A stretch of DNA of 64,000 nt from Thermoplasmata archaeon (GTDB lineage Archaea > Thermoplasmatota > Thermoplasmata > Halarchaeoplasmatales > Halarchaeoplasmataceae). The DNA is taken from positions 226 through 64,225 of the forward strand of contig PWKY01000066.1 in NCBI GenBank assembly GCA_003560595.1, written 5' to 3'. Each line of letters opens with the position of its first letter. Positions within the stretch are counted from its first letter, which is position 1. A program made the translations under genes and the position numbers. Below, piece after piece: positions 20,767 to 56,734 of this stretch. The notes under the pieces were generated by a model. The model was not told the origin of the DNA. It searched no databases and saw only the letters and a list, made by a program, of their open reading frames with translations.

Positions 20767-21511
20767 ATTACCATTTGATAGAACGATATTGTACCTCCCA
20801 GCTGATCTTGAACATCTAGACGGCGACGAGATGCTGGAATTCACCGAAGAGTACACCGGTTTACCGGTAGAATTACGGGATGATTTCTTCCATGAATATT
20901 ACCGTGAGGACCTACCTAGAAGATCGGCTCAGACCAGGGTCAGGGATCTTACCGAAAGGAGGTTCATCGAACCCCTTCCGGTGGAGGTCGATCTTGAAGA
21001 GAAGATAATACATGGAAGGAACGTCCGGGGTATTATCTACGACGGGCGGAGGTTAACAAAGATGATACGGGAGTATATAGCTCCGGCGAAGGGCCATCAT
21101 GTGGTCATCACCGATAGAGCGGTGGGTACTATGGAGGAGCACGATGCCCGCTATCATATTCGAACGCTTATCTGTTCGATCCCTTCTCTTATCTCCACTT
21201 CCGGTATCGTAGAAGGTCCGGCGAAACCGAGGGAGTATTACACCGGCTTGAAGTCGGATCTCGGATTCGAGCCCATGAAGTACGGAGACACTCGTATGAC
21301 GGATGCGGTGAAGTCATACATCCTTCAATCTCTCGCATGGAGGATCACCGGGGAGCCCTTTTGTGAGGATAAAGGGTGCCGTCTTTACAATTCTCACTGG
21401 CAGAAAGAAGTGGTCGAGTATCAGCTGAAAGGTGAGCTGTGTGACGAAGACATGAAATTATTTCGAGAGTTCCAAAATTTTATGTATTCAAAGGATGATG
21501 CGAGGATATGA
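20750..21511 (+). CDS. Conserved hypothetical protein between thi4 and the ThiF-like E1
   Basis: 253-aa ORF whose boundaries overlap thi4 and the downstream E1 gene (ATGA coupling); Cys-containing C-terminal region. Confidence 0.4.
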
Positions 21512-22497: not shown

Positions 22498-22501
22498 TAA
22501 G

Positions 22502-23680: not shown

Positions 23681-23961
23681 TCCTCTTTGTTCTCTTCCAT
23701 CACCGGAGCTAATTCCTCGAATAATCTATCGACGATCTCCTTGTCGGTGGTTTTGAACAGCAGCTTTCCCGAAGGGTAGAATCCTACTTCTACATCTTGA
23801 TCTGGATGTAAAGCAACGATGATGACTTCCGAGGTGAACTTCATCTTGTAACCTTTGTTTTCCAACCGATCCTGCACTCCCTCCATGTTGATCTTCGTCT
23901 TCTTTTCAGGCTCGGCAACGTATGCTCCGGAATCCGAACAGGGTTCTACCACATGATACAT
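23677..23961 (-). CDS. Small hypothetical protein
   Basis: 94-aa ORF coupled to the upstream ThiI-like gene; no motif recognised. Confidence 0.3.
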   Translation of the reverse strand: MYHVVEPCSDSGAYVAEPEKKTKINMEGVQDRLENKGYKMKFTSEVIIVALHPDQDVEVGFYPSGKLLFKTTDKEIVDRLFEELAPVMEENKED

Positions 23962-23964
23962 TTT

Positions 23965-24591
23965 TCAACCACCTTTTTTCTCGAATAACAATCCTTCGAT
24001 GAGATCTTCTACATCTAGATATACTTCCTGCTTTTTAACCTCTTTCACCGTACTGCTTACACGGGGTCCGTCGGGAGTCAGCATGCAGCACACCGCCGGC
24101 TGTGTGGATATATCAAAGGTCCCGATCTTTTTTGCGATCTGGATCACCTCTTCTTTATCCAGTCCTATCAACGGCCGGTGTATCGTGATATCTACTGCGT
24201 CGTCTTCTGAAGCGAGATTAGAAAGCGTCTGTGAAGCCACCTGTCCCAGTGACTCACCGGTAGCTATCGCATCCGCACCTATTTGTTTTGCTAGTCTTTC
24301 AGCTCCCCGGTACATCATCCTGCGGCATAAGATGCACTGGAAGTGGCTGCTTGCGTTCTTAGCGATTGATTTTTCGACCTCTGAAAAGTCACAGGTATAA
24401 AAGTCGATATCGTCATGTATTTTCTGCAGCCTTTCAGCCAAACTGTGAACGGCTGCCACCGTGTTGTCATCGGTGAACGGACGGGTATCCATGTATAGTA
24501 AGCTGACCTCGAAACCCGCCTCCGCTAAAAGGTGTGCCGCTACGGGGGAGTCGATACCTGCCGACAGTAATAAAACTACCTTCTGGACCAT
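23965..24591 (-). CDS. ThiI-like PP-loop ATP pyrophosphatase (tRNA 4-thiouridine synthase catalytic domain only, no THUMP domain)
   Basis: PP-loop LLSAGIDSPVAAHLL; 208 aa. Confidence 0.7.
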   Translation of the reverse strand: MVQKVVLLLSAGIDSPVAAHLLAEAGFEVSLLYMDTRPFTDDNTVAAVHSLAERLQKIHDDIDFYTCDFSEVEKSIAKNASSHFQCILCRRMMYRGAERLAKQIGADAIATGESLGQVASQTLSNLASEDDAVDITIHRPLIGLDKEEVIQIAKKIGTFDISTQPAVCCMLTPDGPRVSSTVKEVKKQEVYLDVEDLIEGLLFEKKGG

Positions 24592-27691: not shown

Positions 27692-29599
27692 ATGAAGGAA
27701 GAGATGGAGTCCTTGGAAATAACCGCCGTTTGTAGAGAGTTTCAGTCGTTGATAGGTGGCTACATTCAAAAGGTTTACAAACCGGGTAAAGACACCCTCT
27801 CTTTTAGAATACATGTTCCTGGGATCGGTAAAAAAACTCTTCTTTTCAAGGTGGGTTCCGCCCTTTACCTCACCGAAAAGGAAATAGATAATCCCATGGA
27901 ACCCGGAAGTTTCATCATGTTGATCCGAAAACAACTGGGCAACGCAAGGATCGAAGCTGTTCGACAGCATGGATTCGATAGGGTCATGGTTATCGAATTG
28001 GGCGGAAGGCATACCTTTCAGCTGATATTCGAAGTGTTTGGCAAAGGTAATCTCATACTGGTCGTCGAGGATAAAATACTTCTACCATATCGTTCGGAAT
28101 CCTGGAGACACAGAGATCTGAAAAAGGGTGAACTATACAAATTCCCTCCGTCACGCTTAAATCCATTTGAATTAGATCCAGATGAGATAGAAGAGGAGAT
28201 AAAGAACTCTAAATCGGACCTTGTACGCACCCTTGCCGTGGTCTTAAATCTGGGTGGTAAATACGCGGAAGAGATATGCGCGCGGATGGATGTGGACAAA
28301 AATACCAAGGAATTGGAGCCTCTGATAGATAAAATAGTCAAAGCAGTAGAAGAGATGAAAGCATCGCTTTTCGAGAATGAATTGGAACCATGTGTTATCA
28401 TGGATGAAGACGAAAGATCGGACGCCGTACCGTTTCCCTTAAAAATCTACTCAGAAAAACAGATGGAGAAAAAAGAAACTTACAACGAAGCTTTAGACGA
28501 AGTAATCGAACCGGTGTCTGAAGAGACCGAGGAGAGCAAAGCGAAGTCCAAGATAGAAAGGAGGCTGGATAGGCAGAAAGCTGCCATAGAACCTTTAAAG
28601 ACCAGTATAGTTGAAGATAGGATCAAGGCGGAATTGATATATCAAAACTACAATCTTGTGGACGAACTGCTTAAAACCATATTGGAGGCCAGGGAAGAAG
28701 GGGTGCGGGAAGAGGTTTTTCAGGCGTTATCCAGCAGTGACCGGATAAAACAGATAAACGATGCGGATGAGTATGTGATAGTTAACCTCAAAGGAGATCA
28801 TGATGGTGAGCATCACGATCTGAACGTTCGATTAGACTTCCGTAAAGATGTTAACGCCAATGCTCAGATGTACTATCAAAAAAGCAAAAAAAGTAAAAAG
28901 AAACTAGAAGGGACCAAAAAAGCTATCGAAGAAACCAAGAAGCAGATACAAAAGGGTATGGAGAAAGTAAAGAAAACCAAAAAGAAACCAACACACAAGT
29001 TTTGGTTCGATCGTTTCAAATGGTTTTTATCTTCTGAAAAAAATCTCGTAGTGGCTGGAAAGGATGCTCAAAGCAACGAAGAAGTTGTAAAAAAATATCT
29101 AGAAAAGAACGGTAAATACGCCCATGCCGAGGCTGGCGGAGCCCCCAGCGTAGTCATCAGAAAGGGTGAGGGTGATATAGGGGAAGACACACTCAAAGAG
29201 GCCTGTCAGTTCGCACTCATACATTCAAAAGAATGGAAACGGGGTATAGCCGGAGGAACTGCATACTGGGTTTCTCCTTCTCAGGTAAGTAAAACAGCAG
29301 AGGCCGGTGAGTCACTACCCACCGGTGCATTCGTTATACGCGGTAAGAGAAACTATGTTTCTAACATACCCATGGAAGCGGTTCTTATAGAGATAAAGTA
29401 CGAGGGAAATAAAAAAGTGATGTGTGCTCCATCATGGGCGGTCGAGGATAGCGTATCAAATAAACAAGTGGTATTTACCCCTGGAAAACTATCTGTTGGG
29501 GAATTTGCCAAGGATATGTCAGATCACTTCAAGGTACCTCAAGTTGAGATACAGAAGATATTACCTCCAGGTGATGTTAAGATAATAAAGAAAAAATAA
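27692..29599 (+). CDS. Rqc2/NEMF/FbpA-family protein (NFACT-N plus NFACT-R/DUF814), ribosome quality control homolog
   Basis: N-terminal NFACT-N block, central coiled coil and C-terminal FDRFKWFLSSEKNLVVAGKDAQSNEEV (DUF814). Confidence 0.75.
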   Translation: MKEEMESLEITAVCREFQSLIGGYIQKVYKPGKDTLSFRIHVPGIGKKTLLFKVGSALYLTEKEIDNPMEPGSFIMLIRKQLGNARIEAVRQHGFDRVMVIELGGRHTFQLIFEVFGKGNLILVVEDKILLPYRSESWRHRDLKKGELYKFPPSRLNPFELDPDEIEEEIKNSKSDLVRTLAVVLNLGGKYAEEICARMDVDKNTKELEPLIDKIVKAVEEMKASLFENELEPCVIMDEDERSDAVPFPLKIYSEKQMEKKETYNEALDEVIEPVSEETEESKAKSKIERRLDRQKAAIEPLKTSIVEDRIKAELIYQNYNLVDELLKTILEAREEGVREEVFQALSSSDRIKQINDADEYVIVNLKGDHDGEHHDLNVRLDFRKDVNANAQMYYQKSKKSKKKLEGTKKAIEETKKQIQKGMEKVKKTKKKPTHKFWFDRFKWFLSSEKNLVVAGKDAQSNEEVVKKYLEKNGKYAHAEAGGAPSVVIRKGEGDIGEDTLKEACQFALIHSKEWKRGIAGGTAYWVSPSQVSKTAEAGESLPTGAFVIRGKRNYVSNIPMEAVLIEIKYEGNKKVMCAPSWAVEDSVSNKQVVFTPGKLSVGEFAKDMSDHFKVPQVEIQKILPPGDVKIIKKK

Positions 29600-34677: not shown

Positions 34678-35814
34678 ATGGGATCCAATATGGAGTCTAT
34701 AATTAACAAAGCTTTGGATAAGCACAAAAAAGAAGAAGAAACCGGTGTGGAAAAAAAACGTATAGAAGAGTTAGAAGGTGCGCCGGAAGATGAAGAGCTT
34801 CGCAAGCTTTTGGAAACGATCGAAGTCAAGATCAGGATATTTGGTTGTGGAGGCGGCGGCTCAAATACCATCGACCGTCTGACACAAACCGGTATAACGG
34901 GTGCTGAATTGATCGCTTGTAATACTGATGCTAACCATCTCCTGCAGACTCATGCACAAAAAAAGGTTCTACTTGGAAAGAATAAAACAAGAGGACTGGG
35001 TGCAGGCGCTCGACCTGAGATAGGAGAGGAATCTGCAAGGGAGGCACAAGAACAACTTAAGAGATACGTTGACAATTCAGACATAGTGTTCATCACCGCC
35101 GGGATGGGCGGTGGTACTGGTACGGGTGCAGCTCCTGTGATCGCCCAGATGGCAGACGATGAAGGTGCCCTCACCATGGGTATCGTTACCATGCCTTTCC
35201 AAGCAGAAGGAAGAGAAAGGATGAGAAATGCTCAAAAAGGTCTAATGAAGATGGAGAGACATTGTGACACTACCGTCATAATACCCAACGATAAATTGCT
35301 AGACCTTGTTCCTAATTTACCCTTGGATGCTGCCTTTAAGGTGGCGGACGAGATATTGATGGAATCTATAAAGGGAATAACAGAGATAATCACAAAGCCC
35401 GGACTCGTCAACCTTGATTACAACGACGTTCGAACCATAATGGACGAAGGAGGACTAGCCATGATCGGGATCGGCGATTCCGACGATCCGAATACTCGAG
35501 TTGAAGATGCAGTATCTCAGGCATTAGGTTCACCATTACTGGGTGATATCGATGTCAGCGAATCAAAGGGCGCTTTGATACGTGTTACCGGCGGACCTGA
35601 CATGACCGTCACCGAGGCACAAAAAGCCGCGGACCTTGTCAACGAACGCATCTCCAAGGACGCAAGGATAATCTGGGGCTGTAACGTAGAAGAAGACCTA
35701 AAGAATACCATAAAGATACTACTGGTCATAACCAACGTGCACTCGGATACCGAAGAATTCGCCAAGATGTCCATGGGCGGTTCCTTGGACGGCGGCATCG
35801 ACATGGTTAATTGA
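34678..35814 (+). CDS. ftsZ: Cell division GTPase FtsZ (full length)
   Basis: GCGGGGSN, AGMGGGTGTGAAPVIA and the C-terminal T7-loop domain are all present. Confidence 0.9.
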   Translation: MGSNMESIINKALDKHKKEEETGVEKKRIEELEGAPEDEELRKLLETIEVKIRIFGCGGGGSNTIDRLTQTGITGAELIACNTDANHLLQTHAQKKVLLGKNKTRGLGAGARPEIGEESAREAQEQLKRYVDNSDIVFITAGMGGGTGTGAAPVIAQMADDEGALTMGIVTMPFQAEGRERMRNAQKGLMKMERHCDTTVIIPNDKLLDLVPNLPLDAAFKVADEILMESIKGITEIITKPGLVNLDYNDVRTIMDEGGLAMIGIGDSDDPNTRVEDAVSQALGSPLLGDIDVSESKGALIRVTGGPDMTVTEAQKAADLVNERISKDARIIWGCNVEEDLKNTIKILLVITNVHSDTEEFAKMSMGGSLDGGIDMVN

Positions 35815-43856: not shown

Positions 43857-44153
43857 CTATAAAAAATTATCCGTTAGACCCCTTTTCAATAAGCTCTGAT
43901 GAGTCATCATCTTCACGTTTTCTCCCCCTTCGACACCTAGCCTTTTCATGTCACCTTCTCTCAGTTTTATATATCCGTTCTCGATCAGAGGATCTGAAAA
44001 AATATTCACCAGGATGTCCCTTCTCTCAGAGCGTATCACAGCGAGATCTCGATCATCTAAACCTAGTTCTCTCATGATCTTTGTATTAACCCTAGCCGTT
44101 CCTTGTATTTTTACTAGACTAGGTTCAACTATCAGGTCTACACTCTTAGGCAT
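43857..44153 (-). CDS. Stand-alone Cdc48/VAT N-terminal-like double-psi beta-barrel domain protein
   Basis: G.ARV..KIMRELGL..D.AVI....R..LV (psi-loop pattern matching VAT-N), 98 aa. Confidence 0.5.
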   Translation of the reverse strand: MPKSVDLIVEPSLVKIQGTARVNTKIMRELGLDDRDLAVIRSERRDILVNIFSDPLIENGYIKLREGDMKRLGVEGGENVKMMTHQSLLKRGLTDNFL

Positions 44154-44181: not shown

Positions 44182-44868
44182 TCAAATTTTTCCCTCTTTA
44201 ATCATCTTTATCCTTCGAGAAGCATCGATACATTCTCGATGATCAAGGGTGTTATCGAATTCTGGGTTTTCTAATAGATAAACTAATTCATTTATCAGTT
44301 TAGATATCCCATGAGAAAAACTCCAGCTAGACAGGTATTCACAATGTATATCTCCTCCACGCTCCGGCGGCGCGATGTTTGGATGGTATATCTGTGACTG
44401 CCATTTTACTCTGGGAGCCACATAAGGATAGGCCCTTGCTAATGACAAAGATAATTTATGTTTAAAGGAGTTGGCGATCATATCTCCGATCAAAACAGGA
44501 CCGGGTATGTTTTTTAATGTAACCTCTACATCGAATCTATTTTCGGAAGAGTCACAGGAAACGCTGTATCCATCGTTTTTTAAAGACTTGACCTCGTTTA
44601 AAATCCTCTGTTCCCAAATCTCTTCTGGAAGTCTGTTTGGATCGTCAGATGGTCTGAGTATCAGTACTTCTCCATGGTCAAAAGATACATTTGACCAGGT
44701 CATATGAGTCGAGATCATTTCACCATCAAGTTCAAATACGTGTGGTTCATGCAATTCCCAGTAAGAACTTACGTCTGAAAGTGTTTTAGAAACTTTATCT
44801 TGGGGCGAAACGGATACACTAACCCTGTCCCCTGTGCCCTCTTTTAAGATCGATAATACCTTACTCAT
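44182..44868 (-). CDS. Ubiquitin-conjugating enzyme E2-like protein (UBC fold with HPN motif and catalytic Cys) with an N-terminal extension of about 80 aa
   Basis: QIYHPNIAPPERGGDIHCEYLSSWSFSHGISKLINELVYLLENPEFDNTL aligns block by block with eukaryotic UBC (KIYHPNI..GSICLDIL..WSP..ISKVLLSI.SLL.DPNPDDPL). The upstream helix-1 and beta-meander regions are also collinear. Confidence 0.75.
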   Translation of the reverse strand: MSKVLSILKEGTGDRVSVSVSPQDKVSKTLSDVSSYWELHEPHVFELDGEMISTHMTWSNVSFDHGEVLILRPSDDPNRLPEEIWEQRILNEVKSLKNDGYSVSCDSSENRFDVEVTLKNIPGPVLIGDMIANSFKHKLSLSLARAYPYVAPRVKWQSQIYHPNIAPPERGGDIHCEYLSSWSFSHGISKLINELVYLLENPEFDNTLDHRECIDASRRIKMIKEGKI

Positions 44869-45004: not shown

Positions 45005-45020
45005 CCTATTTATTGTGGGG
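45005..45020 (+). promoter_or_regulatory. Candidate archaeal TATA box (TTTATTTATT) about 25 bp upstream of the giant repeat-protein gene
   Basis: AT-rich box upstream of the TTG start at 45030. Confidence 0.3.
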
Positions 45021-45029
45021 ATGTAGAAA

Positions 45030-48000
45030 TTGTCAGGTAAATACCTCAAAGCGAGGCAACTCGCAAAAGAGATGGAAAAGCTCGCAAAAAAGACTGCCGA
45101 GGATAAGAAGGAAGCCTTAGATAATCTAGAGAAGGCCGAAGAACTACTAGATGATTCAAAGGAGCTGGGGGCAGATGTTGAGGGGGCTGAAGAACTCATA
45201 GATGAAGCCCGGGAACACTTCGAAGAAAAGGAATTAGAAAAGACGATCGAAAAGGTAGAAAAAGGGTTGGAAATAATTCGTGAAGCCAATAGTAAGAGGG
45301 TCACCGATCTGATGAAAGGTACCGAAGAACTTCATGAAATGATCGCAGAGGAAGATAGATACAAAGAGTCTCTAGAACTCCTTGATCAGGCTAAGGAGGC
45401 GATGGAGGATGATGATTTTAAAGGTGCCATGGAAAAGGCAAAAGAATCTTTGGACCTAGCTCTGCTCGAGATACAAGAAAAACTGACTGATGAATTCGCC
45501 ACCTTGGATTCAATGGTCATCTCTCTTGAAGATAAAGGGGAAGATCCAGAAGAGATCGAAACCAAGGTGCAGGAAGCTAGAGATGCCATGGAACAAGATG
45601 ATTTCCAGACCGCCGTATCACTGGTTAATGAATGCAAAGAATTACTGCATAAGGACTTGAAGGCATTGGTCGAGGAAGAGATAAATAAAGTGAAGAAGCA
45701 GGAGGAGATGATAAGAGAGGGTGGAGGAACAACTGTAGATATCGAAGAGATGATAAGCAAAGCTAGAAACCGTATCAAGGATGGTCACTTTGAAAGTGCC
45801 GTAGAATTCGTCGATGACGCAAAAAATGAATTGAACGAGGCCATGGAAGCTGTAGTTGAAAAGGTGGAAGGCGATATCGAAGGATCACTCAATGAAGCTA
45901 AAGAGATCGAATGTGACATAAGCAAGATAGACGAGATGAGAGAAAGGCTCGTCGACTTAAAATATGAAGGTAAATACAGCGAAGCTTATGAACATATCCA
46001 GAAAATAATTGACAAGCTCGAGGAATTAAAATTCCAAAGAGTGTTAAAGACCATCGCGGAGTCCAGAGACCATTTTATCAAGGGCAAAGAGATAGGGATA
46101 GACATATCTGAACCCATGGGTCTTTTGAATAAGGCGAGGACCTCTCTAAAGGAAGGGGATCATAAAGGAGCATTGGATTGGGCAAATGCCGGGAGACAGA
46201 AGGTAAGGGAGCTTGTGGAGGAACACGAACGCATCGAGATGCGTATAGCCGAAGCCAAGAGAGTAAAGCAGGACCTTGTTGATATAGGCATAGAGCTAAC
46301 CGAAGCAACCAGTATAATATCAGCATCTGAGGAGGCCCTAGGAAAAAAGGATTACGGCGCAGCCGAAGAAAAGCTGGAAGAATTCGACGGATATATCGAT
46401 AAAAATGCCTATGAAGAGATAATGAAACTGGTAGAAGATCTAGAGGTCAAATTAAATATCGCAGAAGATATGGATCTAGATGTTGCTGAGTACACTGAAA
46501 GTTTGGAAGTGGCCATCGCAAATACTAAATCAGCCGAGTATGCAAAGGCTGGTAAGATAACCTTAGATACTTTAGAAGAACTGAATGATCTGATAGAAGA
46601 AGCACTGGATAAACGTATAAAAAACATGAGAGAACTCGTACAAAAGACACAGCAAGAGATGACTGAGGAAGAGGACCTGGAAGAGTTGGAGAAAGTAGAG
46701 GGATTAGTAGAGGAAGTAGAGAGTGCGTTCGATGAAAGCGATTATCGCAAAGCTCACGATTGTTTAAAGAACGTATCTTCCGAGATCAAAAGATGGAGGG
46801 TTGGAGAGGCGGAAGAAAGATATACACGTGTCAAGGAACTGGTCGGTTTGGTCAAAGAACTCGAGATTGAAAATATAGATGAGGATGCGTATGAAGAAAG
46901 GCTTGAGAAAGTCACTGAGGCATTCGACGATGACGATTATACCAACGTTGTAAAGCTCTCCGATGAGATGCTTGATAGTCTTAATAAAGAGTTCGAAAGC
47001 ACTGCTGAGGAAGTATTCTCCCGGGCCAAGATGGAGGCCGTTAAAGCAAAGAAGGCCGGGGTCGATATCGAAGATCTAAGAAGCAGACTGATCGACTGTA
47101 AGAAACTCATACGAAATCAGGACTTTACCTTAGCGATAAGGAATTCCTTGAAGGTCGAAGAGGACGCTAAAAGGATGACGAAAAAAAGAAAATCCAGTTA
47201 CGATCTTATATCCTCTTTATCTACAACTTTAACCAAGCTCAGAAAGAAGGGAGAGATCGAAGATATAACTCCTGCTAAGGAATTATTACTTAAAGCAAAG
47301 ACCAGTTTCCAGGATAAAGATTATACTCAAGCTGAAAATTTGGCACTACAGGCTAAAGAAAAGATAGGCGAACTCACAGCAAAGAGCGAATTCGAATCGA
47401 AACTCAGGAAGCTTCGGGAAAACCTAGAGGAAGCCAATGCTCTTGGTATCGACACTACAGATATAGAACTTGATCTAGATGAAGTAACCTCAATTATGAA
47501 AGAAGGAGATATCGAAGAAGCTGTGGAGGGTATAAGAGAGGCTCAGGAGAATATAAAGGAAAAGATGAGTGATTTTGTAAAACCTGAGATCGAACGCACC
47601 CGTGACATAATCAACTCTGCTAACAACATCGGTGTTGACGTATCTACTCCTGAAGCCATACTTGAAGAGGTCGAGAGTTTATGGGAAGCTGGTGACTTCT
47701 CAAAAGCTTTGACCGAGATAGAAGAATGTAAACGAGAGATCGAGGGCATCAAGAACAAAAGCAAACGTGCAGCAAGTGGTGTAAAACGTGTAAAAGATAG
47801 GATATCAAAGGCCAAGGATCTTAATGCGGATGTTAAAGAACCGGAAAAATACATGAATCAAGCTATAAAAGCACTGAAGGAAGACAGGTATGAAGATTCA
47901 ATCAAATTCACAAAAAAGGCAGAGGAGAGTGTTGAAGAGGCTGAGATGGTTAGGGTTTACAGCATACTGGAAACCTTCAATAAGAAAATAGCAGAAGTAA

Positions 48001-49394
48001 GAAAGGAAGGAGTGAACACCGCCTTCGCAGATAACCTGATGAAGCGTGCTGAAAAAGCCATGGATGCAGGTAAATACCACGAAGCGATCAACTTGGCTAT
48101 GCAGAGTGAAGGGGAGGTAGAGAGGATAGAACTGCAGAAGGATATCGCAAAAAGGAGTATCTCTACAACTCAAAAGAAGATCGAGGATGCCAAGGAAGAA
48201 GGCATAAAGGTAGGCGACGCAAAAAAACTATTAGACCAGGCAAAACAAGCATACAAAGGTGGCTTTTACGTAAAGGCATTCGATAACGCAGTTAAAAGCG
48301 GAGACGACGTCAACCATGTACTCAAAGCACATCAGGAGGTATCAGAAAGATTAGAGTCACTGCCCAAACTGATAGATGCCATGGATGGGCTTGAAGTAGG
48401 GGAAAAAGAATTACAAAAACGATTTGAAGACATCAAACGTTCTATGAGTAGAGGAAGGTACACCAAGGCTTTAGAAACCATCAAAGAAAACGAGAAAAGT
48501 TTGGAAGAAGTCAAAGAGCGTTTACATGATAAAATAGATGAAATCGAAAAAACTGTAAATAATTATCAGGATCAGGGAAAAGAAGTGGGGTCCGCATCTG
48601 AGTTACTTCAAAACGCAAAAGGGAACGTAGATATGGGTGAGTTGATCGAAGCGTGTAACCAGATACAAAGTGCTAAAAAGGAGTTCGGAGGAGATGCTGT
48701 AGAAGGGTATCAAAAATATATCGGCGAGGCTAAAGAATTGATACAGATGGCTAAGAAGTTCGGAGCATCCATCACAGATGCTCAAGGGCTGATCAAGGAG
48801 GCCACTTCTTTGGAAGGGGAAGATATATCTGGTGCTAGAGATAAGGCCCACGAAGCACTAGAGTGCATAGAAAAGTCTTTAGAACCCTACAGTCCCAATA
48901 TATCCTTATCTTCAAAAGCCAAGCTTCAGAAGGGAGATTGGAATACTATCAAAGTCGAATTTAAAAATACTGGTAGAGGGGTCGCGAAAAGTCCCGAGCT
49001 ATCCGTGTCAGGCGGCGAATTGAAAAAAGTTGATCTACCAGCCATGCTCAAGGCCGATGAGGAATTGGAATTAGAAATTAAGTTGAAACCCATCGATGAA
49101 GTAGTTACTCTTACCGCTTTGGGAACTCGAATATTCGACCAAAAAGAACTGACCGATGAAGAAGAGATCGAAGTTGTTGAAAAGTTGTACGGATTTGTAG
49201 AGGCGGAGGGAGGAGAGCACTGCAATATATGCGGTGGTACGATAAAAGAAGGGTTAGAGATAATCCGATGTAGTTGTGGAGAAACCATTCATAAACCGTG
49301 TGGGGAAAGGGAAGGTAAATGCCCGAACTGCGGGGTAGAATTGAAGGAAAAGAAAAAGAAGAAGGCATCTAAACGGGTGGCTTTGAAGATATGA
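45030..49394 (+). CDS. Giant (1454 aa) acidic helical-repeat protein: about 18 tandem TPR/MIT-like helical-hairpin units separated by coiled coil, with a C-terminal C4HC3 RING/PHD-like zinc finger and a poly-Lys tail
   Basis: Recurrent [LI]G[IVA]D[IV]s..e.ll..A.......GD[FY]..A......A unit about every 35-40 residues. C-terminus HCNICGGTIKEGLEIIRCSCGETIHKPCGEREGKCPNCG. TTG start in the track; first in-frame ATG at 45072. Confidence 0.6.
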   Translation: MSGKYLKARQLAKEMEKLAKKTAEDKKEALDNLEKAEELLDDSKELGADVEGAEELIDEAREHFEEKELEKTIEKVEKGLEIIREANSKRVTDLMKGTEELHEMIAEEDRYKESLELLDQAKEAMEDDDFKGAMEKAKESLDLALLEIQEKLTDEFATLDSMVISLEDKGEDPEEIETKVQEARDAMEQDDFQTAVSLVNECKELLHKDLKALVEEEINKVKKQEEMIREGGGTTVDIEEMISKARNRIKDGHFESAVEFVDDAKNELNEAMEAVVEKVEGDIEGSLNEAKEIECDISKIDEMRERLVDLKYEGKYSEAYEHIQKIIDKLEELKFQRVLKTIAESRDHFIKGKEIGIDISEPMGLLNKARTSLKEGDHKGALDWANAGRQKVRELVEEHERIEMRIAEAKRVKQDLVDIGIELTEATSIISASEEALGKKDYGAAEEKLEEFDGYIDKNAYEEIMKLVEDLEVKLNIAEDMDLDVAEYTESLEVAIANTKSAEYAKAGKITLDTLEELNDLIEEALDKRIKNMRELVQKTQQEMTEEEDLEELEKVEGLVEEVESAFDESDYRKAHDCLKNVSSEIKRWRVGEAEERYTRVKELVGLVKELEIENIDEDAYEERLEKVTEAFDDDDYTNVVKLSDEMLDSLNKEFESTAEEVFSRAKMEAVKAKKAGVDIEDLRSRLIDCKKLIRNQDFTLAIRNSLKVEEDAKRMTKKRKSSYDLISSLSTTLTKLRKKGEIEDITPAKELLLKAKTSFQDKDYTQAENLALQAKEKIGELTAKSEFESKLRKLRENLEEANALGIDTTDIELDLDEVTSIMKEGDIEEAVEGIREAQENIKEKMSDFVKPEIERTRDIINSANNIGVDVSTPEAILEEVESLWEAGDFSKALTEIEECKREIEGIKNKSKRAASGVKRVKDRISKAKDLNADVKEPEKYMNQAIKALKEDRYEDSIKFTKKAEESVEEAEMVRVYSILETFNKKIAEVRKEGVNTAFADNLMKRAEKAMDAGKYHEAINLAMQSEGEVERIELQKDIAKRSISTTQKKIEDAKEEGIKVGDAKKLLDQAKQAYKGGFYVKAFDNAVKSGDDVNHVLKAHQEVSERLESLPKLIDAMDGLEVGEKELQKRFEDIKRSMSRGRYTKALETIKENEKSLEEVKERLHDKIDEIEKTVNNYQDQGKEVGSASELLQNAKGNVDMGELIEACNQIQSAKKEFGGDAVEGYQKYIGEAKELIQMAKKFGASITDAQGLIKEATSLEGEDISGARDKAHEALECIEKSLEPYSPNISLSSKAKLQKGDWNTIKVEFKNTGRGVAKSPELSVSGGELKKVDLPAMLKADEELELEIKLKPIDEVVTLTALGTRIFDQKELTDEEEIEVVEKLYGFVEAEGGEHCNICGGTIKEGLEIIRCSCGETIHKPCGEREGKCPNCGVELKEKKKKKASKRVALKI

Positions 49395-49909
49395 AGATAC
49401 TTATCCACGCCTGCTGTGCTCCTTGCTTGACTTATACCTATAAATGTTTTAAAGAATCAGATTTGACGGTATATTGGTTCAACCCCAACATACATCCTTT
49501 TAAAGAGTATCAAGAGCGTTTTGATTCCATGATCGATTTTATTGAATCAAAAGATATAAGATTTATCCATGGCGGTGATTATGCTCTTGAAGAATTTATG
49601 GATGGTGCTTTAAAGGCGGATGATAGGTGCAGATTTTGTTATAGATGGAGACTTGAAGAGACCGCTAGATACGGGGCGGATAATGATTTTGAGGCTTTTA
49701 CCACGACGCTGACTATATCTCCCTACCAGGACCATGATCTTATCCAAGAGATCGGTGATGAACTAGGTAAAAAATATGGTATAGAATTCAAATACAGAGA
49801 TATGAGAGAAGGCTTTCGTGAAAGTCATAGGTTGGCTAGAAGTTTTGGATTGTATATGCAGAAGTACTGTGGTTGTATATTCAGTGAAGAAGAAAGGTAT
49901 CGAAGCTAA
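49391..49909 (+). CDS. queH: Epoxyqueuosine reductase QueH-like (DUF208)
   Basis: MKILIHACCAPCLTY start and the CGC...C cluster typical of QueH; 4-bp ATGA overlap with the upstream giant gene. Confidence 0.7.
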   Translation: MKILIHACCAPCLTYTYKCFKESDLTVYWFNPNIHPFKEYQERFDSMIDFIESKDIRFIHGGDYALEEFMDGALKADDRCRFCYRWRLEETARYGADNDFEAFTTTLTISPYQDHDLIQEIGDELGKKYGIEFKYRDMREGFRESHRLARSFGLYMQKYCGCIFSEEERYRS

Positions 49910-52972: not shown

Positions 52973-53830
52973 TTGGTAGAACAAGGTGAAATAAAATGTC
53001 CAGTATGCGACTCTTTGTTAGATAAAGACAGCAGGAATTGTCCTTCATGTGGGTTGACTCGCAGCCTTATCGACATGGAAAAAAATATGGATGAGGACCC
53101 AGTTCTAGATCTTATGGGAGATATAATCGATGATATAACCGATGATAGATTAAAGGAGAGTGAAGATGAGATCTTTAATATTGTGAAGAAATTGAACAAC
53201 TCTAAAGAATTAAATGGTGATGAGACCGTAGAAGTGACTGGTGATGAGACCGTAGAAGTGACTGGTGATGAGACCGTAGAATTGACCGGTGATGAGACCG
53301 TAGAAGTGACTGGTGATGAGACCGTAGAATTGACCGGTGATGAGACCGTAGAAGAAGTGGTGATCTTTGAGTGCCCAATTTGTTCTGCAGAGGTGGAGGA
53401 AACCGATTCTGAATGTCCAGGGTGTGGGGCTATATTTGAAGACGATGAAGAAGACATCGAGGAGTTATTGGATGAAGAGTTATCTAACGCAAGGAACGGT
53501 CTGGTAGAGATCAGGGATCTACCGATTTCTCCGGATGCTTTGAAGGACTTGGTAAAGCAGTCGGTGACGATGAAAAAGGAAGGGGACCTAGAAAGAGCCT
53601 TAGAGAAGGCTGTTGAAGCGAACGACTTACGCCATAAGTTAGAAGAATTCGTTAACATACTTTCAGATTCCAAAAAGATGCTGAAAAAGATGAAAGAGAA
53701 TGGAATGGATTATATGGGTCACATGAAAGATTTAAAGGACTCAAAAAATATGGTAGAACTCGGAGACGTACATGGTGGACTGGAATCTTCACGGCAAACA
53801 TATACCGAAATATTAAAAAAAATTGGTTGA
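52973..53830 (+). CDS. Zinc-ribbon / acidic-repeat / coiled-coil protein (paralog of the next gene)
   Basis: CPVCDSLLDKDSRNCPSCG, then 6x GDETVEVT repeats, a second ribbon CPICSAEVEETDSECPGCG, then one helical repeat unit and a coiled coil. TTG start. Confidence 0.6.
   Translation: MVEQGEIKCPVCDSLLDKDSRNCPSCGLTRSLIDMEKNMDEDPVLDLMGDIIDDITDDRLKESEDEIFNIVKKLNNSKELNGDETVEVTGDETVEVTGDETVELTGDETVEVTGDETVELTGDETVEEVVIFECPICSAEVEETDSECPGCGAIFEDDEEDIEELLDEELSNARNGLVEIRDLPISPDALKDLVKQSVTMKKEGDLERALEKAVEANDLRHKLEEFVNILSDSKKMLKKMKENGMDYMGHMKDLKDSKNMVELGDVHGGLESSRQTYTEILKKIG
53215..53360 (+). repeat. 24-bp tandem repeat x6 (GGTGATGAGACCGTAGAAGTGACT), coding for GDETVE[VL]T
   Basis: Read directly; the variants differ only by gtg/ttg. 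Confidence 0.9.
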
Positions 53831-54130: not shown

Positions 54131-56734
54131 GTGCAGAAACTGAGCGAAAACAAGGGTATCATCTGCCCAGTATGCAAAACCGAGATACCGGATGAGTTGG
54201 AGGAGTGCCCTAGCTGTGGCCTTGATAAGATACTCATCGAGCTTGAAGAGGGAGAGGATAACGATGAATACGTCGAGAACTTAGAGAAACTATTAGCCGA
54301 CGAACTAGACGACGATCTTTTGGATCTGGAGGATGATCTAGATGAGTTAGACTTGGACGATCTAGATGATGAATCACTGGACGATATATTGGGATTAGAA
54401 GAGTCAGACGATATATCGGAATTAGAAGAGTCAGACGATATATCGGAATTAGAAGAGTCAGACGATATATCGGGATTAGAGGAGTCAGACGATATATCGG
54501 AATTAGAAGAGTCAGACGATATATCGGGATTAGAAGAGTCAGACGATATATCGGAATTAGAAGAGTCAGACGATATATCGGAATTAGAAGAGTCAGACGA
54601 TATATCGGAATTAGAAGAGTCAGACGATATATCGGAATTAGAGGAGTCAGCTGATATATCGGAATTAGAAGAGTCAGTTGATATATCGGAATTAGAAGAG
54701 TCAGCTGATATATCGGGATTAGAAGAGTCAGACGATATATCGGAATTAGAGGAGGAGGTAGAGCAAGACGATCTTCTGTTGGGATTAGAGGATGAGGTGG
54801 AAGATATATCCGAAGAAGAGCTTCTGAAGGAGCTAGAGGAAGAACTTGAGGTATCGGATGAAGTGGTGTACGAATGTCCAACATGCGGTCACCATTTAAA
54901 GGAAGAGGACAAAAAGTGTTCTTCCTGCGGAACGGTTTTTGAAGACTCAGAAGAAGAACTTGAAGATGAGCTCAGTCTGTTAGAACAAACCCTTGAGGAT
55001 CTAGCTGAAGATGAGTTGGAACCGACCTCGGAAGATGAGCAGGAAGTTATAGAGATAATGGAGGAGATCCAACGATTCATAAAAGATCTGGAAGAAGAAC
55101 CGATAAAATTAGATGTGGTACGCCAGCTTTATGAACAAGTTGAAGGGGAAAAAGCGAAGGGCAACATCGAATCAGCCTCACGTCTCGGATTGGAAGCCTT
55201 AAAAGTATGCGAGAACATGGAGCGCTTTTTGGATAGGAGCCGAACACTGAAAAAAGAGCTTACCTTTTTCAAAAAAGTAGGTCTGAACTACGATCATTAT
55301 GTAAGTGAACTGAACTCCGCTAGAAGGTCTGTCGAATCAGGTCTTACCAAGAAGGGATTGGAACGGGTAGATAAGTTGATCGAGAAAGCGGAGTCAAAGA
55401 AAAACAACTATGAGAAATTACACGATACCAAGCAAAACATCAACGATGTGGTATCTAACCTAAATCAGATATTGAGCTCCGCTAAATCTTTGAAGATGCC
55501 TTTGGAATCAGAAAGGGAGTTGATTTCAAATGCTCTAGTGGCCTCCAAAGACGGTGATGTACAAAAGGCCTTAGATTGGCTATTAAAAGCTAGAGAACGC
55601 TCTATAGATAAGATAGAGGATACCATATCTCAGAATATACGGGATTTTGAAGAGAAGGTCCACGAGTTGAGAGCAGATAATAGAGATAAATTAGAAGATA
55701 TGTTGATGAAAGTTAGAGATGCTAAGGTCGAAGGGAACTATATCCGAGCGGGTAAACTTATAGGCCGAGTGAATAAGTTGGTTGAAGGGACATTAAAGGA
55801 AGATAACGGGGAACTAGACGCTTTAAAAGACTTGATCGATGCTGCGGTATCCATCGGCGTAGATACAACCGCGTGCATTGAACACTATCAAAAGGCGATC
55901 GATTCCATGGACCCTAGAAGAAGAAAGATACACATCAACAACGCCAAGAGACATCTCACGAAACGGTTACCACCTAAATTACAGTCAGCCATGAAAGAAT
56001 CCTTGATAAAGCTAGAGAAGGCGCGAGAAAATGAAAAAAACATCTCCAAGCCGGTGACCTATTTAAAACAGGCCAACCTGAACGTCAAGAAAAAAAATTA
56101 CCTTAAAGCCTTGGAGTACATCAAGGTATTCAACGATAAAATACGGCCGATGCTGGAAGAAGAGGAAGAAAAAGAAGAGGTAAAGGAAGCCGGCGTATTA
56201 CGCATACAAAAGAAATTGAAGAAAGAACCAAAACCCACTAAAACCATCGATCTAAAAAAGACCAAAACCATCCCGAGGGATCTGATGAAAGGTTCAACAT
56301 ACCTTTTTACCGAAACAGACCCAGTTGAAGCCTTTAAGATGGCCAAAAAAAAGGTCGATGAAGGTATAAGAGGTATCTGCGTTACCAGACAGTACCCTGA
56401 TAAGGTGAAATCAAGATATAATATGAGGGATGTCAGAATAATATGGTTATCGAATATAGACCAAGCCGATGCGATCAAACCTAAGGCATTGGATGATCTG
56501 AGCTTGGAGATGGAGGATTTCCTAAAAGATGAAGGTGGATTGATACTGCTTGATGGGTTGGAATATTTGATATCAAATAACGACTTCAAAATTGTATTCC
56601 ATGTTATACAATCTATCAAAGACCAAGTTGCCATCTCCGATTCCATACTTATACTTACATTAACGCCGGATACACTGGAAAAACACCAGATAAGCCTTTT
56701 GGAAAAAGAAGTCGATGAAACCTATCATCTTTAA
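54131..56734 (+). CDS. Zinc-ribbon / LEESDDISE-repeat / coiled-coil protein with a C-terminal DUF835-like domain (867 aa)
   Basis: ICPVCKTEIPDELEECPSCG, 13x 9-aa acidic repeats, a second ribbon ECPTCGHHLKEEDKKCSSCG, helical repeats of the giant-protein type, and a C-terminal GSTYLFTE..GICVTRQYP..IIWLSN..LLDGLEYLISNNDF..ILILTLTPDTL block. GTG start. Confidence 0.6.
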   Translation: MQKLSENKGIICPVCKTEIPDELEECPSCGLDKILIELEEGEDNDEYVENLEKLLADELDDDLLDLEDDLDELDLDDLDDESLDDILGLEESDDISELEESDDISELEESDDISGLEESDDISELEESDDISGLEESDDISELEESDDISELEESDDISELEESDDISELEESADISELEESVDISELEESADISGLEESDDISELEEEVEQDDLLLGLEDEVEDISEEELLKELEEELEVSDEVVYECPTCGHHLKEEDKKCSSCGTVFEDSEEELEDELSLLEQTLEDLAEDELEPTSEDEQEVIEIMEEIQRFIKDLEEEPIKLDVVRQLYEQVEGEKAKGNIESASRLGLEALKVCENMERFLDRSRTLKKELTFFKKVGLNYDHYVSELNSARRSVESGLTKKGLERVDKLIEKAESKKNNYEKLHDTKQNINDVVSNLNQILSSAKSLKMPLESERELISNALVASKDGDVQKALDWLLKARERSIDKIEDTISQNIRDFEEKVHELRADNRDKLEDMLMKVRDAKVEGNYIRAGKLIGRVNKLVEGTLKEDNGELDALKDLIDAAVSIGVDTTACIEHYQKAIDSMDPRRRKIHINNAKRHLTKRLPPKLQSAMKESLIKLEKARENEKNISKPVTYLKQANLNVKKKNYLKALEYIKVFNDKIRPMLEEEEEKEEVKEAGVLRIQKKLKKEPKPTKTIDLKKTKTIPRDLMKGSTYLFTETDPVEAFKMAKKKVDEGIRGICVTRQYPDKVKSRYNMRDVRIIWLSNIDQADAIKPKALDDLSLEMEDFLKDEGGLILLDGLEYLISNNDFKIVFHVIQSIKDQVAISDSILILTLTPDTLEKHQISLLEKEVDETYHL
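54392..54750 (+). repeat. 27-bp tandem repeat x13 (ATTAGAAGAGTCAGACGATATATCGGA with minor variants), coding for LEESDDIS[EG]
   Basis: Read directly; the variants are gac to gct/gtt and gaa to gga. Confidence 0.9.

Follow-up and report, generated by a model that had tools for sequence, protein, structure and literature searches.

What kind of protein is encoded by the giant gene of this locus, whose 1454-residue product was initially annotated as an array of TPR/MIT-like two-helix repeats? The analysis presented here suggests a scaffold of the ubiquitin-ligase type that had not been described before, and not a TPR protein. The coordinates of its features, within the 64-kb stretch of DNA that was analysed (the window), are collected in Table 1. 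The open reading frame, its length and its TTG start were all upheld by the ORF list and the translation. The TTG start is kept in all 18 loci in which the N-terminal motif was found, each time with a GGAGATG or GGGGATG box 7-9 nt upstream, and an in-frame stop lies directly 5' of the start in the window and in L003, L005, L007, L024 and L025. At the other end, the stop codon does overlap the queH start, as had been noted (ATGA; TGA at 49392-49394, ATG at 49391), and queH is the next gene downstream in most loci. The protein has a net charge of -110, and no transmembrane segment was found in it (hydropathy KD19 maximum 0.8).

Table 1. Features of the giant-gene locus in window coordinates.
Feature	Position (nt)	Strand	Details and basis
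Ubl-E2 fusion gene, 228 aa	44182..44868	-	divergent neighbour upstream of giant gene
UBC (E2) core, aa 80-228	44185..44631	-	H162-P163-N164; Cys176 (nt 44341-44343)
Ubiquitin-like (beta-grasp) domain of fusion, aa 1-75	44644..44868	-	DSSP order beta-beta-alpha-beta-beta
Shine-Dalgarno-like box GGGGATG and TTG start codon of giant gene	45013..45032	+	comparison of 18 loci
Giant gene (rod, beta-sandwich, RING)	45030..49394	+	1454 aa; ORF list and translation
N-terminal cap helix, aa 1-46	45030..45167	+	basic, conserved; MxGKYLKARQLAKEMEEKAKKTAE (58-sequence consensus)
20 tandem helical units R1-R20	45168..48899	+	aa 47-1290
R1-R10, start residues (aa)			47, 108, 170, 232, 294, 356, 420, 483, 546, 615
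R11-R20, start residues (aa)			677, 741, 806, 868, 931, 994, 1058, 1120, 1183, 1245
Hot spot R5-R6, aa 294-419	45909..46286	+	11 columns at >=80% per unit
Hot spot R16-R17, aa 994-1119	48009..48386	+	12 (R16) and 5 (R17) columns at >=80%
Ig-like beta-sandwich (CARDB-type), aa 1291-1391	48900..49202	+	AF2 strands, Foldseek, Pfam
C4HC3 RING finger, aa 1392-1439	49203..49346	+	ligands C1398, C1401, C1414, C1416, H1421, C1424, C1431, C1434
Basic linker and conserved C-terminal peptide	49347..49391	+	...KKASKRVALKI-COOH; homologue comparison
queH	49391..49909	+	PF02677 E 3.6e-56; ATGA overlap with giant-gene stop
867-aa protein: zinc ribbons, acidic repeat, DUF835 (E 5e-31)	54131..56734	+	at least one weakly related helical unit, aa 462-514

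That a tandem repeat runs along the protein was borne out, since both autocorrelation and leave-one-out HMMs detect significant internal periodicity, but the period, the copy number and the invariance of the core had to be revised. BLOSUM autocorrelation over aa 31-1285 peaks at lags 62 (z 7.3), 126 (z 4.7) and 64-65 (z 3.3-4.1), which gives a period of 62-64 residues in place of the 35-40 first proposed; at lags 31-40, z is only -1.5 to +0.5. We count 20 units and one N-terminal half-unit, not about 18 copies. All 20 units outscore 100 of their own shuffles on z in the leave-one-out HMMs (z 2.1-13.9), and for 16 of the 20 none of the 100 shuffles reaches the score of the unit. The core A..A....GD[FY]..A, described as invariant, is a consensus only: the 20-unit alignment (A7) has no invariant column, with A in 12, D in 11, Y or F in 15 and A in 17 of the 20 units at the core positions. 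Three of the four segments offered as examples were located, at aa 356, 420 and 868, but the fourth begins NADV (aa 932), not GADV. The charged coiled-coil linkers thought to join the units are really part of the units themselves, being the latter half of the long helix in each. The N-terminal cap, with a net charge of +4 across aa 1-30 and the highest mean majority fraction of all segments (0.63), aligns to the second half of the unit HMM.

The unit had also been ascribed to the products of two nearby genes, at 52973 and 54131, as a local paralogous family; this link proved weak. BLASTP against the giant protein gives E 0.058 for the 52973 product and E 0.001 for the 54131 product, and the 20-unit HMM, searched against all ORFs of the window, finds neither at E<=10. 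In hhalign, one unit of the 54131 product scores 28.9 (E 8e-5), where shuffles reach at most 15.7; for the 52973 product the match is marginal, with a score of 19.0 and a best shuffle of 16.4.

In an AF2 model of aa 795-1454 (pLDDT 87.4), helices of 15 and roughly 40 residues alternate, followed by strands and then by a zinc module; within each unit, a turn of 3 residues connects the 15-residue helix to the one of roughly 40. Rod segments of ~55-90 residues can be superposed on three-helix bundles to within 1.5-2.9 Å, and over longer spans the structure comparison retrieves the Ebh and EzrA rods. We propose that the latter half of a long helix would pack with two elements of the next unit, its short helix and the front half of its long one. 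Three-helix bundles would then follow one another along the rod, linked by continuous helices as they are in spectrin, Ebh and EzrA. If straight, such a chain would be ~60 nm long (20 units of ~3 nm, a rough estimate); the pTM of 0.46 is too low to fix the overall shape of the rod (straight, curved or superhelical), and we count it against our best reading. The proposed serial bundles, the long helix common to adjacent bundles and the rod or ruler character are shared with spectrin, EzrA, Ebh and Embp. However, the unit of 62-64 residues compares with 106 in spectrin and 126 in Ebh, the membrane anchor of EzrA and the export signal of Ebh are absent, and the protein ends in a beta-sandwich and a RING; sequence homology with spectrin, EzrA or Ebh is undetectable. 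A similar A/L...Y..A signature occurs in DUF4398 (PF14346; PDB 4fm3), YfdX (PF10938) and the SoxAX-binding protein SAXB (NF052674). These families are single-domain, mostly periplasmic proteins forming one small helical bundle, in contrast to the 20-unit array described here. Their HMMs match the window protein weakly (YfdX E 3e-4, SAXB E 3e-9; all under curated cut-offs), and DUF4398 is matched in 3 of 33 extended-family members.

The family comprises 78 homologues, the majority of ~1440-1500 aa, found only in uncultured Thermoplasmatota among the records with a name. Over 58 sequences, with identity as low as 21%, every unit keeps the same or almost the same length, from which we deduce a fixed rod geometry. 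Two pairs of units stand out in conservation: R5-R6, with the consensus FxKVLxTIAESRExFIKAKEIGxDIxEPMxLLNKARxSLK, and R16-R17, which contains the peptides INLAMQSEGELERIELQQ and GFYVKAFD; the latter two were chosen as genome-scan patterns for their strong conservation.

While the helical array had been recognized, the C-terminal beta-sandwich and RING had been overlooked. Foldseek matches the sandwich to the CARDB domain of PF1109 (3idu, 2kl6) and to an NBR1 domain (4ole), and among 24 modules taken from homologues Pfam detects CARDB in 8 (best E 1.2e-7). Seven cysteines of the RING are invariant among 58 homologues; of the 24 modules, 23 match Prok-RING_1 (best E 1.7e-10) and 17 match zf-RING_2. 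The window's own RING scores 21-25 bits (module alone 25.3), under the Pfam gathering cut-off of 29.1, and gives weak PDB matches to the RINGs of Arkadia and RNF165. It has a hydrophobic residue within C-x-[IVLYF]-C, and C-P-x-C in most sequences, which we take to be the E2-contacting positions of RING-E2 complexes. The last Cys is followed by Gly, whereas a 'linchpin' Arg occupies this position in many active RINGs. Beyond a linker of widely varying length, the terminal motif [KR][KR][VL]x[LM]x[IL] is retained; the tail carries a net charge of +7 in its last 20 residues, and its pLDDT below 50 indicates that it is disordered. The resulting architecture (basic N-terminal helix, 20 units, beta-sandwich, RING, basic linker and C-terminal peptide) is well supported.

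The initial annotation described the giant gene but missed its divergent neighbour, which encodes an E2 with a ubiquitin-like domain fused to its N-terminus. This protein scores 45.5 bits with UQ_con (cut-off 27), matches UbcH10 among PDB sequences (E 7e-7) and, as an AF2 model of pLDDT 90, retrieves Ubc13/UbcH5 in Foldseek (E 6e-7); Cys176 aligns with the catalytic Cys of UbcH10. The fused Ubl has no C-terminal GG and is thus not conjugable as it stands. Judged by sequence profiles, it is homologous to the free Ubl of another locus, L026, a stand-alone protein of 93 aa ending in ...PDPEGG (hhalign probability 93%, E 3e-7). The Ubl-E2 gene is divergent to the giant gene in all 12 other loci in which the giant protein is at least 40% identical and upstream DNA is present, with E2 identities of about 31-57%. 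It is missing beside the giant gene in the clade of <=36% identity (L001, L016, L018, L019, L021, L022 and L025), so the pairing is not universal in the family. The catalytic Cys is retained only in the window, L003, L004 and P0080, and is replaced by M, I or F in 9 of 12 neighbouring orthologues from other genomes; YPY..P, HPN and W.F are invariant even in orthologues that have lost it, which fits selection for the fold and for RING binding. Other Thermoplasmata have stand-alone Ubl(GG)-E2(Cys)-JAB operons, which shows that the E2 lineage derives from a real conjugation system.

Among the closest known systems is that of the archaeon Caldiarchaeum subterraneum, with its cascade of E1, E2 and a small RING protein (PMC3082918, PMC5654768). 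The C4HC3 cross-brace pattern is common to our RING and to that system and PF14446 (Prokaryotic RING finger family 1), and a review gives it as the prokaryotic RING ligand pattern (PMC11354881). In both systems the RING is genetically linked with an E2 and a ubiquitin-like domain, and the Ubl(GG)-E2-JAB operons of related lineages are a further likeness. Here, however, the RING makes up the final 4% of a rod of 1454 aa instead of being a small protein, the Ubl is joined to the E2 N-terminus and lacks GG, the neighbourhood has no E1 or JAB gene, most E2 orthologues lack the catalytic Cys, and the host belongs to Thermoplasmatota, not to Aigarchaeota or Asgard.

From these observations, we hypothesize, with about even confidence, that the giant protein is a fixed-length, spectrin-like cytoplasmic scaffold or ruler of the RING-E3 type with an E2-docking RING. 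The RING would dock the E2 domain via the usual RING-E2 surfaces, and R5-R6, R16-R17, the beta-sandwich and both conserved termini would hold partners or substrates at fixed spacing, so that the whole could act as a RING-E3-type ruler or scaffold. A cytoplasmic location is deduced from the zinc finger, the E2 partner and the lack of a hydrophobic segment. We stress that several points count against a ligase scaffold: the lack of an E2 neighbour in the more distant clade, the loss of Cys in 9 of 12 E2s, the Ubl without GG, the Gly at the linchpin site, the sub-cut-off RING score, and the absence of a JAB, free Ubl or dedicated E1 gene from the 64-kb window, whose sole ThiF gene lies in a thiamine/sulfur cluster 23 kb off.

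The strongest alternative, which we regard as possible but rather doubtful, is a structural scaffold of the cytoskeleton, membrane skeleton or cell-division machinery, like EzrA or spectrin, with no ubiquitin-like signalling; RING, beta-sandwich and basic termini would serve only to attach the rod, for instance to the membrane or to filaments such as FtsZ. It accommodates the strictly fixed unit lengths, as expected of a ruler or strut, the basic termini of a highly acidic protein, the clade without an E2 neighbour, the many Cys-less E2s and the wide spread of the family in Thermoplasmatota, and one homologue (P0009) has a precomputed EzrA match (PF06160). However, it leaves unexplained why all seven RING cysteines never vary in a family whose remaining sequence has diverged to 21% identity, and why the divergent Ubl-E2 pairing lasts; moreover, there is no membrane anchor as in EzrA, and Pfam and PDB searches found no spectrin or EzrA homology for the window protein.

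By analogy, the protein might be a Listerin-like ligase of ribosome-associated quality control, its fixed-length arm spanning a ribosome-size particle and setting the RING at a defined site, in partnership with the NFACT/Rqc2 homologue. Eukaryotic Listerin (Ltn1), like other large helical-arm E3s, starts with a conserved N-terminus, continues as a long arm of helical repeats whose length is defined, and ends in a RING. An NFACT gene lies in the window (27692-29599), and synteny with queH, eIF2-alpha, S27e and L44e is conserved. We nevertheless find this improbable: the likeness is one of layout, with a different repeat type (three-helix bundles against HEAT/ARM), no sequence similarity and no Listerin domain matched when Pfam and PDB were searched; the NFACT gene, at a distance of 15 kb, shares no operon with the giant gene, and the downstream translation genes are on the opposite strand.

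The TPR/MIT reading, by which helical hairpins would bind ESCRT-III or Vps4-like partners through MIT-MIM contacts, was right in seeing a helical unit that recurs almost throughout, with a small-residue/aromatic packing signature (L..A......GDY..A) recalling TPR and MIT helices, and wrong in taking it for a 34-40-residue two-helix hairpin. The TPR-type model ANAPC3 is weakly matched in 5 of 33 extended-family members and a few homologues, and one JGI homologue record is named 'TPR repeat protein'. The MIT domain is itself a three-helix bundle of similar size; this half of the guess was close in shape only. With a period of 62-64 residues (34 in TPR) and no Pfam TPR or MIT match to the window protein at E<=1, the TPR reading is largely refuted; nothing links the protein to ESCRT-III or Vps4. 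The scanned window ORFs include two FtsZ/tubulin-family genes and no ESCRT-III or Vps4 gene, and the conserved neighbour is in fact an E2. We consider this reading very unlikely. Least credible is an exported, adhesin-type surface rod like Staphylococcus Ebh/Embp: although CARDB-type domains are usually extracellular, it is disfavoured by the charged helix at the conserved N-terminus, the lack of a signal peptide or hydrophobic segment, and two cytoplasmic features, the Cys-rich zinc finger and the E2 partner.

Returning to the RING-E3-type scaffold, we infer a ubiquitin-ligase activity of the giant protein. Because the E2 of the window has its catalytic Cys, transfer of a ubiquitin-like modifier would be possible in this archaeon; in most sister genomes, whose E2 is Cys-less, the two proteins more probably form a UEV-like module that binds without catalysis.

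The reading frame at 45030-49394 on the forward strand is the sole long one at these coordinates, and its translation from a TTG codon runs to 1454 residues, as the initial annotation had proposed and as the ORF list and the translation bear out. We find TTG as the start codon in 18 of the 18 loci in which the conserved N-terminal motif was detected, with a GGAGATG or GGGGATG box 7-9 nt upstream. Because the same codon recurs in all 18 loci with the box upstream, the TTG start, judged by comparison of the loci, is no artefact. An in-frame stop lies just 5' of the TTG in the window and in the related loci L003, L005, L007, L024 and L025. In several loci (window, 45013-45032; the same position in L003, L005 and L007) the ATG of the box runs straight into TAA or TAG, which may be a 'start-stop' mini-ORF serving translational control, or merely a Shine-Dalgarno sequence. 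At the other end of the gene, the TGA stop shares the sequence ATGA with the ATG of queH, an overlap that was also proposed initially and that stands. Co-oriented with the giant gene, queH lies downstream of it in most loci; its presence is curious because archaea use archaeosine rather than queuosine.

The product had been described as about 18 TPR- or MIT-like units of 35-40 residues with an invariant core. An internal repeat is indeed found by autocorrelation, HMM and shuffle tests, but with a different period and copy number. Autocorrelation of residues 31-1285 (BLOSUM62, against 200 shuffles) has its highest maximum at lag 62 (z 7.3), followed by lags 126 (z 4.7), 64-65 (z 3.3-4.1) and 188 (z 2.9), and no peak at lags 31-40 (z -1.5 to +0.5); the period of the giant protein is therefore about 62-64 residues, and one of 34-40 residues is ruled out. 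By iterated HMM search the protein divides into 20 units (R1-R20), ahead of which lies a half-unit at the N-terminus. When each unit was scored with a leave-one-out HMM, all 20 outscored their own shuffles (z 2.1-13.9), and for 16 of the 20 none of 100 shuffles scored as high as the real sequence. The core of the unit, G.D.....LL..A......GD[YF]..A, is a consensus over the 20 units with no invariant column, the best conserved positions being A (17 of 20) and Y/F (15 of 20).

Residues 795-1454 were modelled with AlphaFold2 from an alignment of 58 homologues, giving a mean pLDDT of 87.4 and a low pTM of 0.46. Each unit in the model has a short helix (about 15 residues) that turns over 3 residues into a long one (about 40 residues), followed by a loop of 5 residues bearing G-x-D. 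A three-helix bundle would form where the second half of a long helix packs against the next unit, on its short helix and the front half of its long one; the connectivity would be spectrin-like with a much shorter unit, the packing and overall rod shape being what we infer from the model. With collinear bundles the rod would, as a rough estimate, be about 60 nm long. Like rods of the spectrin, EzrA and Ebh type, the giant protein would thus consist of tandem three-helix bundles joined by continuous helices, whereas the unit of those rods is 106 or 126 residues long. Structure matches of the rod are AF1782 (2oo2) and designed three-helix proteins, and longer stretches match rods of serial bundles such as Embp (6gv5). 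Pfam models of spectrin, EzrA and FIVAR/GA find no match in the giant protein, and its sequence relatives in the PDB are chance-level matches only (CurD, a designed protein, XRCC4-myosin) together with weak RING matches. TPR or MIT membership has neither HMM nor structural backing: no TPR or MIT Pfam model matches the giant protein at E<=1, there is no TPR or MIT structure among the 60 matches listed, and the 34-residue helix-turn-helix of TPR does not fit helices as unequal as those of the model. The only TPR-type match is ANAPC3, in a few relatives.

The initial annotation missed both a C-terminal β-sandwich and RING and the divergent Ubl-E2 gene described below. Following R20, residues ~1291-1391 form a β-sandwich that Foldseek matches to the CARDB domain of Pyrococcus PF1109 (3idu, 2kl6) and to the NBR1 domain. 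Pfam detects CARDB (PF07705) in 8 of 24 homologue modules, i.e. their β-sandwich and RING segments (best E 1.2e-7), and has no CARDB match in the window sequence itself; the segment is thus an Ig-like β-sandwich of CARDB type by Foldseek, and by Pfam in homologues. Next comes a C4HC3 pattern of zinc ligands, C1398-x2-C1401-x12-C1414-x-C1416-x4-H1421-x2-C1424-x6-C1431-x2-C1434, whose eight ligands fit the predicted cross-brace of a RING finger (Prok-RING_1, PF14446). A review gives C4HC3 as the prokaryotic RING pattern (PMC11354881). The seven cysteines are invariant in 58 sequences, and one clade has E, D or Q in place of the histidine. Prok-RING_1 matches 23 of the 24 modules at E<=0.01 (best 1.7e-10) and the eukaryote-type zf-RING_2 matches 17; the window RING itself scores 21.1-25.3 bits against Prok-RING_1, below the cut-off of 29.1, and many homologues carry a precomputed PF14446 label. 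In the RING, the C-x-I-C carries a hydrophobic residue, and C-P-x-C is present as well. A lysine-rich linker then leads to KRVALKI-COOH; this tail is disordered in the AlphaFold2 model, and its ending, [KR][KR][VL]x[LM]x[IL], is kept even behind linkers longer by tens of residues. The protein has a net charge of -110, and both of its termini are basic.

Directly upstream of the giant gene, on the opposite strand, lies a gene for a fusion of a ubiquitin-like domain (Ubl) with an E2 core. The core (residues ~80-228) scores 45.5 bits against UQ_con, for a cut-off of 27, and phmmer against the PDB finds UbcH10 (E 7e-7), with YHPNI aligned and Cys176 on the catalytic Cys. The model (pLDDT 90) is matched by Foldseek to Ubc13/UbcH5 (target-normalised TM 0.62-0.69, E 6e-7). 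The window protein therefore has the UBC fold (PF00179) with both HPN (H162-P163-N164) and the catalytic Cys. Residues 1-75 show in the AlphaFold2 model the ββαββ order of a β-grasp domain; GG is absent from the Ubl/E2 junction, which leaves no processable C-terminal GG. We observed the Ubl-E2 gene, divergently oriented, in all 12 loci that have both upstream DNA and a giant protein at least 40% identical, and the E2s of paired loci are as little as ~31% identical. No E2 adjoins the giant gene in the clade at <=36% identity, where the upstream genes are unrelated: their N-terminal sequences are unlike E2, Ubl or JAB, and tblastn with the E2 is also blank. Only the window, L003, L004 and the database protein P0080 retain the catalytic Cys; M, I or F replaces this Cys in 9 of the 12 E2 orthologues that adjoin the giant gene in other genomes, which are therefore UEV-like. 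YPY..P, HPN and W.F are invariant throughout the neighbouring E2s, including those without the Cys.

Tblastn and Pfam scans of the 64-kb window found no JAB, and no dedicated E1 lies near. The window has a single E1-like gene, of ThiF type; it belongs to a cluster with Thi4, DUF6775 (probable metallopeptidase), cysteine desulfurase and ThiI, and its surroundings suggest a setting of sulfur transfer or thiamine, not partnership with the E2. By profile search, E2s of ~170 residues in other Thermoplasmata retain the Cys (GG[WY]VC). In the operons of L026 and L027 such an E2 is accompanied by a Ubl of 93-94 residues, ending ...ELIPDPEGG with a variable extension, and by a JAB protease whose HSHPGYGCFLSETD motif (JAMM) is intact; no E1 stands beside these operons or that of L028. 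Hhalign aligns the small Ubl with the N-terminal domain of the fusion protein (probability 93%, E 3e-7). Given this match, the window gene seems to have joined the Ubl and the E2 of a genuine conjugation cassette. A 1503-aa protein near the L026 operon, giant-like in length, is unrelated and secreted-protease-like.

Features in the window and at related loci (positions in nucleotides, unless given as residues)
Feature	Position	Strand	Description
Tubulin/FtsZ GTPase domain alone	5080-5736	-	218-aa ORF; E 6.5e-27
Cyanophycin synthetase-like protein	10881-13484	-	867 aa; Cyanophycin_syn N-terminal domain E 1e-44; Mur ligase and ATP-grasp domains
Thi4/ThiI cluster	19987-24591		
ThiF-type gene	21508-22497		within the Thi4/ThiI cluster
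NFACT/Rqc2 homologue	27692-29599	+	NFACT_N E 2.7e-67
FtsZ	34678-35814	+	full-length, with C-terminal domain
CDC48_N-like protein	43857-44153	-	98 aa; double-psi barrel; 38 nt upstream of TrkA-TrkH, same strand
Ubl-E2	44182-44868	-	228 residues
Units R1-R10 of the giant protein, starts	residues 47, 108, 170, 232, 294, 356, 420, 483, 546, 615		
Units R11-R20 of the giant protein, starts	residues 677, 741, 806, 868, 931, 994, 1058, 1120, 1183, 1245		
queH	49391-49909	+	PF02677 E 3.6e-56; epoxyqueuosine reductase family
52973 product	52973-53830	+	285 aa; paired zinc ribbons; perfect tandem acidic repeats
54131 product	54131-56734	+	paired zinc ribbons; perfect tandem acidic repeats; C-terminal DUF835 E 5e-31
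Two membrane-protein genes, L005	2818-3976		~195 aa each
Two membrane-protein genes, L015	3576-4747		~195 aa each
Stand-alone Ubl-E2-JAB operon, L026	9715-11096		
Stand-alone Ubl-E2-JAB operon, L027	9720-11129		
Stand-alone Ubl-E2-JAB operon, L028	10001-10848		

A database search returned 78 proteins, of which the named ones are all from uncultured Thermoplasmata/Thermoplasmatota, and all relatives are metagenome-derived. Homologues are mostly 1440-1500 residues long at identities down to ~21%. A genome scan with an alignment of the 16 closer sequences as query gave 23 loci, mostly in soda-lake and hypersaline MAGs (Ca. Halarchaeoplasma, Ca. Haladaptatiplasma, Ca. Saliniplasma); one of them, L018 (JBKHKA010000002.1), has the typical family synteny and is labelled 'Candidatus Aenigmatarchaeota' where all other loci are Thermoplasmatota, a label that may be a binning or labelling error. 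The alignment of 58 sequences occupies just 1655 columns, and the lengths of single units hold throughout it, at 61-61 (R1), 62-62 (R5), 63-63 (R7) and 63-63 (R15) residues; R18 is duplicated in one sequence. Conservation is focused on the N-terminal helix, R5-R6, R16-R17 and the RING, a pattern to be expected of a scaffold that has a fixed geometry and binds at specific sites.

The unit itself is spread more widely. Searched against 1.84 billion cluster representatives, the 20-unit profile matches 879 proteins at E <=1e-3, 281 at E <=1e-10 and 97 at E <=1e-30, among them proteins of 2000-7686 residues with up to 53 units; those with names are from Thermoplasmata. Four of these much larger proteins (P0111, P0124, P0127 and P0185; 3106, 3129, 3904 and 7686 aa) have 32-53 matched units of 62 residues. 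Pfam matches in 33 extended-family proteins are sparse (ANAPC3 in 5, DUF1771 in 4, DUF4398 in 3, PQQ β-propellers in 3) and most members lack any Pfam annotation; the unit is therefore without a curated model and, given the number and size of the matching proteins, it defines a sizeable unannotated repeat family, whatever its function.

The initial annotation had also placed the 52973 and 54131 products in a local paralogous family with the giant protein. One unit of the 54131 product reaches hhalign E 8e-5, scoring 28.9 where shuffles attain at most 15.7; otherwise the signal is marginal (hhalign score 19.0 against 16.4 for a unit of the 52973 product; BLASTP against the giant protein gives the 52973 product E 0.058 and the 54131 product E 0.001), and the 20-unit HMM has no match in either at E<=10. 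Paralogy is thus not established, and both products may carry a helical module of this type. Their tandem repeats are GDETVE[VL]T, six times, in one, and SELEESDDI, about 17 times, in the DUF835-ended protein; kin of the 285-aa protein are found near the giant gene in L003, L007, L011, L015, L023 and L024. The CDC48_N-like gene stands beside the giant gene in 15 loci, some of them E2-less, and is absent from several; from its spacing and strand it probably belongs to the TrkA gene cluster, and we dropped its product as a candidate partner of the C-terminal peptide. In several genomes two membrane-protein genes intervene between it and the Ubl-E2 gene. Elsewhere in the window, the short GTPase-only ORF occurs alongside a full-length FtsZ, and a cyanophycin synthetase-like protein is encoded in this archaeal genome.

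The architecture of the giant protein (rod, β-sandwich, RING) is near certain. From the conserved divergent E2 neighbour, the hydrophobic residue in C-x-I-C and the C-P-x-C, we hypothesize that the RING would dock the E2 core. The rod would keep partners at fixed distances. That the protein is a ruler or scaffold of the RING-E3 type is a reading in which we place about as much belief as doubt. Transfer of a modifier is conceivable in the window genome, which has Cys176, and ligase catalysis in that organism is rather doubtful; in most sister genomes the E2 has turned UEV-like and the RING/E2 pair is probably a binding module.

The main rival is a purely structural skeleton akin to EzrA or spectrin, to which the RING would be merely an attachment module; the E2-less clade and the Cys losses speak for it, whereas the invariant RING and the lasting pairing with E2 would go unexplained, and we regard it as unlikely. 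The window's NFACT gene suggested a Listerin-like ribosome ligase, since Listerin, the eukaryotic partner of Rqc2, is likewise giant and combines helical repeats with a RING; proposed purely by analogy, this function has little support and is very improbable. A TPR/MIT array for ESCRT partners likewise finds little support, no ESCRT-III or Vps4 gene being present among the window ORFs scanned, and is highly improbable. An exported adhesin has little support and a negligible probability; the giant protein contains no hydrophobic segment.

Returning to the RING-E3-type ruler, the giant protein varies two known kinds, the RING E3-type protein and the spectrin-like rod. RING-E2 pairs and spectrin-like rods are well known separately. 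Our literature searches found no description of the two joined in one length-conserved archaeal protein of 1454 residues, nor anything on the giant family, on its repeat or on the fusion of Ubl and E2. Discussion of eukaryote-like ubiquitin machinery usually centres on Asgard and TACK archaea, far from Thermoplasmatota. RING and DUB domains were noted earlier in one marine group II euryarchaeote (PMC4327156), and the Caldiarchaeum cascade has been characterised in other work (PMC3082918, PMC5654768). As a tentative and, taken whole, improbable proposal, Thermoplasmatota may possess a dedicated machine of E2 and RING, based on a spectrin-like ruler whose 20 three-helix bundles give it a fixed length; the ruler would hold the E2 on the RING, or the UEV-like protein descended from that E2, at a fixed distance from partners on the N-terminus, R5-R6 and R16-R17. 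This would be a ligase or adaptor of cytoskeletal scale, e.g. for large-particle quality control or cell-cortex patterning, in which a catalytic Ubl/E2/JAB cassette would have become a fused, mostly non-catalytic binding module within one clade. If the RING docks the adjoining E2, eukaryote-like E2/E3 logic would reach uncultured halophilic Thermoplasmatota, the family would present a testable 'molecular ruler' E3, and the natural series in which the catalytic Cys is lost and the partner kept would be a model for the origin of UEV-type pseudo-enzymes.
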